Assembly (NCBI GenBank): GCA_947475165.1
Contig: CANJLD010000008.1
Span: forward strand, 88,841-152,840
Direction of reading: 5' to 3'
Source of the DNA: Bacteroidota bacterium
GTDB taxonomy: Bacteria > Bacteroidota > Bacteroidia > Chitinophagales > LD1
DNA: 64,000 nucleotides
Shown here: positions 9,867 to 10,586 of the stretch, piece by piece
Layout of the letters: each line of letters starts with the position of its first letter
Numbering within the stretch: position 1 is the stretch's first letter
Program-made: the position numbers and the translations under genes
Notes under the pieces: model-generated
What the model was told of the DNA's origin: nothing
The model's input: only the letters and a program-made list of their open reading frames with translations
Database searches by the model: none

Positions 9867-10052
9867 ATGGCAAAAAGTTCTATTAAACTCGATGGTAAAA
9901 ACATTCCTCTGACAAAAAGCGGAACTCCCAATTTACGGTATTTAACCAAAGACCAAAAGGCAGTTGTTCAGAAGTATGTAGGAGATAAAAAGAAAGCGAA
10001 AAAGGACGTTGTTCTAAGAGAATTAGAATCCTTTCTGGCAGAATTAGGGTAA
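9867..10052 (+). CDS. Small basic hypothetical protein, 61 aa
   Basis: TACCTTTG (-7 element) at 9820-9827, A-rich leader; TKSGTPNLRY motif. Confidence 0.65.
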   Translation: MAKSSIKLDGKNIPLTKSGTPNLRYLTKDQKAVVQKYVGDKKKAKKDVVLRELESFLAELG

Positions 10053-10586
10053 GTAGTTTTTTAAAATCATTTCAGGTTCATACCTAAACATCATTTGTTT
10101 AGTGTGGTAATAAATGAAATCAGGTTCAAGTTTGATTCTCTTAATGTAATCAAACTTTGAAAATGATTTCATTTTGTGTTTTATAGAAGATAGTTCTTGC
10201 ACCATTTTAAAACCGAACGTGTCGGGGAGGTAGATGCTAGGGTTAAATGAAACAAATAAATGAAAATGAAGTCCGAAGTTTCTTATCTCTTCATTTACGA
10301 TTGTATTAGTGTTCTGAGACCAAAAGAAGTCCTCAGAGGTTTCAAAGAAACAATAGTATTTAACTAGTTTATTTTCATCTCTTTTCTTGTAGGTATATTG
10401 TGGGTGGTTCCCGTATTCATAACAAAACTTATTGACCGTGCTACGGATAACCTTCTTTAATTCGTTTAAGGTGAGGTTTGGGTGAGTTAAAGACTGTTGG
10501 AAGACATAGTATGTCAAAACCGTCGGGAGTGTCTTAATCTCGTTGTAAATCTTTATTTGGTGAGGTTTTAAAGTATAGGTTCTCAT
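10044..10586 (-). CDS. Putative HUH endonuclease / rolling-circle initiator (inovirus Gp2/YagK-like)
   Basis: YYCFFE...GLHFHLFV (uHuHu) and FIYYHTKQ (YxxK), in the order expected for Y1 HUH proteins. Confidence 0.6.
   Translation of the reverse strand: MRTYTLKPHQIKIYNEIKTLPTVLTYYVFQQSLTHPNLTLNELKKVIRSTVNKFCYEYGNHPQYTYKKRDENKLVKYYCFFETSEDFFWSQNTNTIVNEEIRNFGLHFHLFVSFNPSIYLPDTFGFKMVQELSSIKHKMKSFSKFDYIKRIKLEPDFIYYHTKQMMFRYEPEMILKNYLP

Follow-up and report, generated by a model that had tools for sequence, protein, structure and literature searches.

A short reading frame on an integrated island of a Bacteroidota bacterium very probably encodes an unannotated HUH single-stranded DNA nickase of a new family, as judged from conserved residues and a predicted fold. 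The reading we favour on balance is that this candidate is a single-domain, Rep-class Y1 HUH enzyme from an orphan family of small Bacteroidota integrative elements, which would nick DNA in order to start rolling-circle replication (RCR), transfer, or both. The gene lies within a stretch of 64,000 nt of contig CANJLD010000008.1 (assembly GCA_947475165.1), here called the window, and all coordinates are positions in it. The features that bear on this reading are collected in Table 1.

Table 1. Coordinates of the island, the candidate nickase gene and the features around it
Feature	Position	Strand	Basis
Whole island, 7,257 bp, inside comM/yifB	5986..13246	.	comM halves, GC, inverted repeats, circular contigs
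Small serine resolvase, 204 aa, far island end	6074..6688	(-)	Pfam Resolvase; 74% identical to that of L008
Putative restriction endonuclease (cargo)	6728-7594	(+)	Assigned from position only
N6/N4 DNA methyltransferase (cargo)	7589-8917	(-)	Pfam N6_N4_Mtase; convergent with endonuclease
Candidate HUH (Y1) nickase gene	10044..10586	(-)	180 aa; ORF and motifs, invariant residues, AF2 topology
Second hairpin, variable sequence, running into box TGATTGTCCTAT (10601-10612)	10607..10642	(-)	Inverted repeats differ between loci
CAGTTA box and stem-loop CACTT-CTGTAAA-AAGTG; candidate nick site (dso or oriT)	10655..10677	(-)	Conservation, covariation
Core ORF-C, ~50 aa, Lys/Glu-rich helical	10690..10842	(-)	Conserved, syntenic in 5/6 loci (blastp)
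Core ORF-B, 103 aa, probable HTH_17 (excisionase-type) DNA-binding protein	10823..11134	(-)	Syntenic orthologs in all loci compared
Core ORF-A, 83 aa, acidic	11100..11351	(-)	blastp orthologs in 5/6 loci; no family match
Large serine recombinase (island integrase)	11468..13177	(-)	Pfam Resolvase, Recombinase and Zn_ribbon_recom

The candidate carries an invariant Glu, HUH and YxxK signature

The original prediction had singled out this frame by three motifs and by the lack of a helicase domain. We could confirm both on the minus strand: the 180-aa product carries YYCFFE at residues 77-82, GLHFHLFV at 105-112 and YYHTKQ at 159-164, it has neither a Walker A motif (P-loop) nor a second domain, and no helicase gene was found across the whole island. 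In an alignment of 40 homologs with identities down to 29%, 10 of the 180 columns were invariant, and eight of these were E82, H107, H109, F111, Y160, H161, K163 and Q164. An alignment of 45 sequences built around a distant member gave the same invariant set. Mean column identity was 45-49%, compared to full invariance of E82, H107xH109, F111 and Y160-H-x-K163-Q164 among homologs to ~25-30% identity. Because eight of the ten invariant columns fall on motif residues, the motif pattern goes beyond chance. The two histidines and the tyrosine, whose conservation in homologs had been proposed as a check, were invariant in both alignments.

H107-F-H109-L-F-V forms a His-hydrophobic-His motif with a hydrophobic tail, lying on a predicted strand (107-114 in the model of the window protein, 108-115 in a second model), and C-terminal to it follows the Tyr helix (155-162) with the YxxK motif (Y160, H161, K163, Q164). 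In the YY pair of YYHTKQ, Y160 was conserved across the homolog alignments but Y159 was not, and the candidate is therefore of the single-tyrosine, Y1 kind. E82, H107 and H109 are putative metal ligands, and Y160, within YHTKQ, is the putative nucleophile.

The predicted fold has the element order of Rep-class HUH proteins

AF2 models were obtained for the window protein (pLDDT 85.1, pTM 0.83) and for a homolog of ~30% identity (pLDDT 91.3, pTM 0.86). Both showed a beta-alpha-beta-beta-alpha-beta-alpha-beta order (b1 24-31, a1 40-58, b2 75-82, b3 107-114, a2 121-133, b4 142-150, a3 155-162, b5 174-176), in which E82 ends b2, the HUH motif starts b3 after a short inserted helix between b2 (E82) and b3 (HFH), and the Tyr helix follows b4. 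Rep-class HUH proteins are arranged with the HUH motif on a strand and the tyrosine on a later helix. The structure prediction that had been suggested as a check thus came out compatible with an HUH protein, in the Rep-class order (for the definitions of HUH motifs see PMC5714925).

Foldseek searches of viral models (BFVD) gave a best E of 7.8e-4, with prob 0.99-1.0 and TM 0.42-0.49. The best 50 matches were mostly unnamed, and five of the eight named ones were replication initiators of ssDNA viruses, namely two Microviridae replication proteins, one Rep fragment and two parvovirus/densovirus proteins, NS1 and NS2. Against the PDB, no significant match was found with either model, nothing falling below E 0.03. 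The best 25 PDB matches of the second model included the parvovirus B19 NS1 nuclease, RAYT, ISDra2 TnpA and AAV Rep68, all with E of at least 0.04. The best of these HUH matches (B19 NS1, E 0.041; RAYT, prob 0.80, TM 0.42/0.45; ISDra2/IS200 TnpA and AAV Rep68, E 0.07-0.14) stood among matches to other ferredoxin-like folds, e.g. DyP, Cas6 and beta-alanine synthase.

The family has no close relatives and a faint, colinear likeness to PF23343

Homology searches yielded first 33 proteins and later ~65 clusters, 163-210 aa in length, all without annotation and all from metagenomes or MAGs (Flavobacterium, Crocinitomicaceae, Chitinophaga, "uncultured Bacteroidetes"). The family is rare, with carriers in 2 of 401 Bacteroidota genomes and one gene copy in the source genome. 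No curated HUH model of Pfam, NCBIfam or PHROGs and no PDB sequence matched the window protein, and scans of the individual members against the same collections returned nothing or noise, e.g. MinE and DUF2513. An exhaustive phmmer search of 1.8 billion representatives retrieved 25 clusters, all of the family itself, and the profile search gave no match between E 1e-31 and 10; with such a gap there is no bridge to a known family. By tblastn the family was absent from the 72,556 plasmid records of PLSDB, and neither a tblastn search of INPHARED phages nor a scan of IMG/VR produced a match.

The only curated family to give any signal was PF23343 (REP_ORF2-G2P), with sub-threshold matches in 4 of 32 members. 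The best of these (P0004, residues 39-162 against profile positions 6-95 of 99; E 0.022) scored 15.5 bits against a family cut-off of 27.8 bits, so that the profile search proposed at the outset brought no Pfam match to threshold. We also compared the family by hhalign with 12 genuine PF23343 domains from Bacteroidota genomes (12 of 301 genomes). The alignment was colinear, placing Glu on Glu (FFE strand against the "W..E.q" strand), HFH on HYH and YHTK on YxxK, and E82 at the end of b2 aligned with a Glu conserved in all 11 PF23343 domains that cover the region. It scored 18.7, a value reached in 0 of 200 column shuffles (mean 11.5, sd 1.9, max 17.7); for scale, PF23343 and Y1_Tnp, both true HUH families, score only 24.5 against each other. 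The profile matches and hhalign lend weak, colinear support to an HUH assignment. The PF23343 Rep domains used here (L009-L020, with FxTLT, HYH and YxxKYxxK) are probably parts of integrated elements of Microviridae-like or plasmid type.

This comparison also bears on how the motifs are to be named. YYCFFE comes first in the motif order of the original prediction, but because the profile alignment sets KYYVWKAE...HFHLLV (from L014) against KYYCFFE...HFHLFV, it is probably the Glu-bearing beta2 strand that precedes the HUH motif, not a classical motif I. Of the proposed Y1 HUH order, the conserved HUH followed by YxxK in a single domain stood up, but the two families named for it did not: an inovirus Gp2/YagK type found no Pfam match over threshold and only one tyrosine is conserved, and the IS200 TnpA type is taken up below. 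We further rejected a canonical MOB relaxase, as the tyrosine lies 51 residues after the HUH motif instead of N-terminal to it and relaxase domains are missing.

Taken together, we hold it likely that the candidate belongs to the HUH superfamily. It could instead be a non-catalytic ferredoxin- or RRM-like DNA/RNA-binding regulator, for instance of upstream hairpins and hence of expression or excision, or another metal-dependent hydrolase that mimics the HxH and YxxK of Rep proteins. In keeping with such a protein, every link to known HUH families stays below significance, the PDB fold matches include many non-HUH alpha+beta sandwiches, and the hairpins described below lie in the 5' leader of the candidate's own gene. 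We nevertheless regard it as unlikely: the invariant Glu, two His, Tyr and Lys are the very residues that catalysis needs, on the expected elements and in the expected order; the named BFVD matches are mainly Rep proteins, with prob of at least 0.99; and a metallo-beta-lactamase is rejected, its HxH match reaching only E 0.5 and lacking the HxHxDH continuation.

The gene closes a four-gene module of small defence islands

The island splits comM into two halves (5149-6015 and 13237-13944), has a GC content of 32% compared to 41% in the flanks, and ends in perfect 17-nt terminal inverted repeats (5994-6010 and 13220-13236) with a GATG core. Its putative endonuclease and its methyltransferase form a type II restriction-modification (R-M) pair, with a cargo span of 6728..8917. 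ORF-A, ORF-B, ORF-C and the candidate are co-oriented in the island, and ten other elements have them in the same order, with the candidate last. In the sixth locus compared (L004), ORFs of ~87 aa and ~50 aa were called at the positions of ORF-A and ORF-C, respectively, and sub-threshold matches to PF12728 were obtained for three of six ORF-B orthologs (best E 5.5e-5).

The remainder of these elements varies. Their integrase is usually a tyrosine recombinase and here a serine recombinase; insertion targets of the relatives include ssrA, with tmRNA genes confirmed, and another comM site; and their cargo comprises type I restriction-modification, MmeI-like enzymes, a ParB-methyltransferase fusion, a Dcm/Z1/DUF4420 set, KAP NTPase, GmrSD and Fic. 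As the four-gene core occurs with either integrase type and with changing cargo, it is a module distinct from integration. Furthermore, every related element seen in full has a second small recombinase, either a serine resolvase of ~204 aa or a tyrosine recombinase of 196 aa (window 6074-6688; L001 17610-18200; L002 17944-18534; L005 12250-12840; also L004, L006, L008 and L054-L059). The swap between the two looks like non-orthologous replacement, and the presence of one or the other in every full element suggests that the elements need such an enzyme, for example to resolve multimers of a replicating circle.

Several further features were seen around these loci. Three relatives with a tyrosine integrase sit directly downstream of a tmRNA gene called by ARAGORN (L002 8622-9022, L005 8663-9063, L006 8676-9045), and repeated GTGT(A/G)AAAC boxes downstream of ssrA resemble arm-type integrase sites. 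A fourth such relative, L001 (8187-8822, 20332-20534), is also inserted in comM at another position than the window island, its distal comM fragment measuring 211-222 aa compared to 235 aa in the window. In the region upstream of ORF-A (about 11352-11467 in the window, and its counterparts in L001-L008), most loci have a (G)ATATATA(A) box, after which all seven have a variable hairpin that ends in ...ACTAAAA; box and hairpin are probably the promoter and leader of the four-gene operon.

The island occurs as a closed circle

Runs ERR12084942 and ERR12084900 each gave a Logan contig (L048 and L049) of 7,287 bp whose two ends overlap by 30 bp. The contigs are circular permutations of one another and 100% identical to 5986-13246, with position 13246 joined to 5986 across a 4-nt core, and no 30-nt repeat able to fake this join was found at the island ends. 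A second element, whose Rep is ~30% identical and whose integrase is a tyrosine recombinase, was recovered as identical 7,233-bp circles in runs SRR23126150 and SRR23126145. The integrated form of the island is found in several assemblies. The excised element that the original prediction had presupposed was thus met directly, as the excision junction carried by both Logan contigs, and besides this circular form the island has an integrase of its own and defined att ends. The circular contigs prove a circular junction, not replication. Closed circles of two elements in four runs, together with a second recombinase on every element, fit episomal multiplication better than rare excision.

A conserved, covarying hairpin precedes the gene

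In the spacer between ORF-C and the candidate gene lies a CAGTTA box followed by a stem of 4-6 bp with an invariant loop CTG(T/A)AAA, and this arrangement recurs in each of the 22 loci examined, at a distance of 40-136 nt from the gene. The stem changes from locus to locus (first-stem variants CACTT/AAGTG, TCCTT/AAGGA, GTCTT/AAGAC, GTTCT/AGAAC and ACCT/AGGT). Stem pairing was retained in 83.8% of cells compared to 65% in shuffles, none of 500 shuffles being as high, and in slid controls it was 44-56%. Four of the five stem pairs show changes on both sides, the outer stem contains a few G-U pairs, and in L004 and L036 the hairpin sequence is kept with hardly any stem. Searches of the window and of the 3.88-Mb genome each found the motif once, with no second copy that could serve as a transposon end or an RCR terminator. 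A stem that covaries around a conserved loop, adjoining the rep gene, is the usual appearance of oriTs and of the double-strand origins of RCR (PMC5714925), and the hairpin seen here is a strong candidate for a cis-acting origin (dso or oriT), which, lying within a probable operon transcript, could equally be an RNA element.

The second, variable hairpin runs into a GATTGT(C/T)CTAT box in most loci, and the box is present once in the window. The CAG of CAGTTA can also pair with the CTG of the loop, giving an alternative hairpin (TTACAG/CTGTAA, 10659-10677), and it is this alternative, not the covarying one, that the minimum-free-energy fold of the ssDNA uses. A search for a single-strand origin recognised none. 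Downstream of the candidate, the spacer at 9671-9866 (196 nt) has a more stable fold than shuffled sequence (z -2.9), mostly on account of a terminator-like hairpin and of three direct repeats of 30 nt, which are island-specific. These tandem repeats (9724-9813), 70-73% alike and situated between two small plus-strand ORFs, resemble iterons or operators and are not conserved in related elements.

A model for replication or transfer of the circle

We propose the following sequence of events. The island first leaves the chromosome as a 7.26-kb circle through the action of its integrase. The candidate would then bind the conserved stretch that directly precedes its gene, where E82, H107 and H109 may hold a divalent metal and Y160 may cut one strand in or beside the CTGTAAA loop, becoming covalently joined to the 5' end. 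The free 3'-OH could prime rolling-circle synthesis by the host polymerase with a UvrD/PcrA-type helicase, which we take from the host because the element has none. The circle would thereby be able to persist and multiply as an episome, the small second recombinase would resolve multimers, and a helper conjugation system could draw its ssDNA from the same nick. In Firmicutes, ICEs and IMEs use Rep-type HUH proteins as initiators, as relaxases or as both (PMC5704250). Which of the two roles the candidate plays is something we infer, and the upstream hairpin and the circular contigs strengthen its assignment.

The nickase might also be solely a Rep-type relaxase, in which case the hairpin would be an oriT, a co-resident conjugative element would transfer the circle, and there would be no vegetative replication. 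Size and layout are IME-like (an integrase, small DNA-binding ORFs, one nickase and one conserved hairpin), and Rep-like relaxases occur in 118 of 144 streptococcal IMEs (PMC5704250). However, the few Bacteroidetes IMEs in that review of 2017 all have canonical relaxases, and we found no later description in the literature searched. The candidate would moreover seem to lack a C-terminal extension for docking a coupling protein. Since the circles and the second recombinase also suit episomal maintenance better, a role restricted to transfer appears improbable to us.

Far less probable still is an IS200/IS605-like Y1 transposase that mobilises a small unit unrelated to the life cycle of the island. 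The original prediction had named IS200 TnpA as one example of the motif order, and we reject this reading: TnpA proteins share with the candidate a similar size, the HUH-then-Tyr order and a single tyrosine, and structures of ISDra2, IS200 and RAYT turn up repeatedly among the weak PDB matches, but there is no PF01797 match, hhalign against 18 Bacteroidota Y1_Tnp proteins was non-colinear and not significant (3 of 100 shuffles reach its score), the hairpin motif is present in one copy instead of a left-end and right-end pair, and the gene occurs once per genome, always in the same four-gene operon of integrase-bearing islands.

We return to the favoured reading of a Rep-class nickase that starts RCR and/or transfer, which admits a broader and more tentative extension. 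Possibly, the four-gene module and its hairpin origin define an undescribed class of ~7-kb "integrative rolling-circle episomes" of Bacteroidota, portable replication/transfer cassettes that work with any integrase (serine or tyrosine, with comM, ssrA or tRNA as targets), carry restriction-modification and other defence cargo on multicopy free circles, and hold the first Rep-type relaxase to act with Bacteroidota conjugation machinery.

Should the favoured reading be true, a family called hypothetical in every database would gain a name and a testable mechanism, small defence islands of environmental Bacteroidota would have a plasmid-like rolling-circle phase, and Rep-type nickases on integrative elements would reach beyond Firmicutes. 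In addition, provided that its specificity holds up, an enzyme of 180 aa with a short, well-defined candidate target (CAGTTA, hairpin loop CTGTAAA) would be a handy new HUH tag or nickase for joining proteins to ssDNA.

Comparison with known systems

The initiators of PF23343 (Microviridae, plectrovirus and inovirus-type) share with the candidate the same colinear Glu strand, HUH strand and YxxK helix, and the viral fold matches are Rep proteins of the same general kind. Several differences set the candidate apart. PF23343 proteins have an FxTLT motif I, of which the candidate has no clear counterpart (NLTL or YLVIQQ), and many have YxxKYxxK whereas the candidate has one conserved tyrosine. 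The spacing from Glu to HUH is 24 residues in the candidate, with an insert that includes a helix, compared to 7-13 in the PF23343 set, and its 180 aa compare to mostly ~200-500 aa for genomic open frames with PF23343. Finally, the candidate resides on integrase-bearing islands and not on phages, and it has no IMG/VR or INPHARED matches.

Among small enzymes, pMV158 RepB (PF01719, Rep_OBD) represents RCR initiators that likewise have no helicase. The candidate has no sequence match to it and no recognisable oligomerisation domain, and the replicon described here also integrates into the chromosome. No comparison set could be drawn from PF01719 (Rep_2), of which the 301 Bacteroidota genomes searched contain no member. 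IS200/IS605 TnpA is also a minimal single-domain Y1 HUH enzyme of similar size that recognises DNA hairpins; the candidate differs in having no detectable homology to it, and in its single hairpin and single copy within an operon of an integrase-driven island.

In the Reps of Firmicutes ICEs and IMEs (MobT/Rep_trans, Rep_2, PHA00330; PMC5704250), the sole DNA-processing enzyme is likewise related to RCR initiators. The candidate differs from them in belonging to another phylum and to an orphan sequence family, and compared to the Firmicutes elements the islands described here are without a TcpA-like coupling protein, are much smaller (~7 kb), and have R-M or other defence genes as their cargo.
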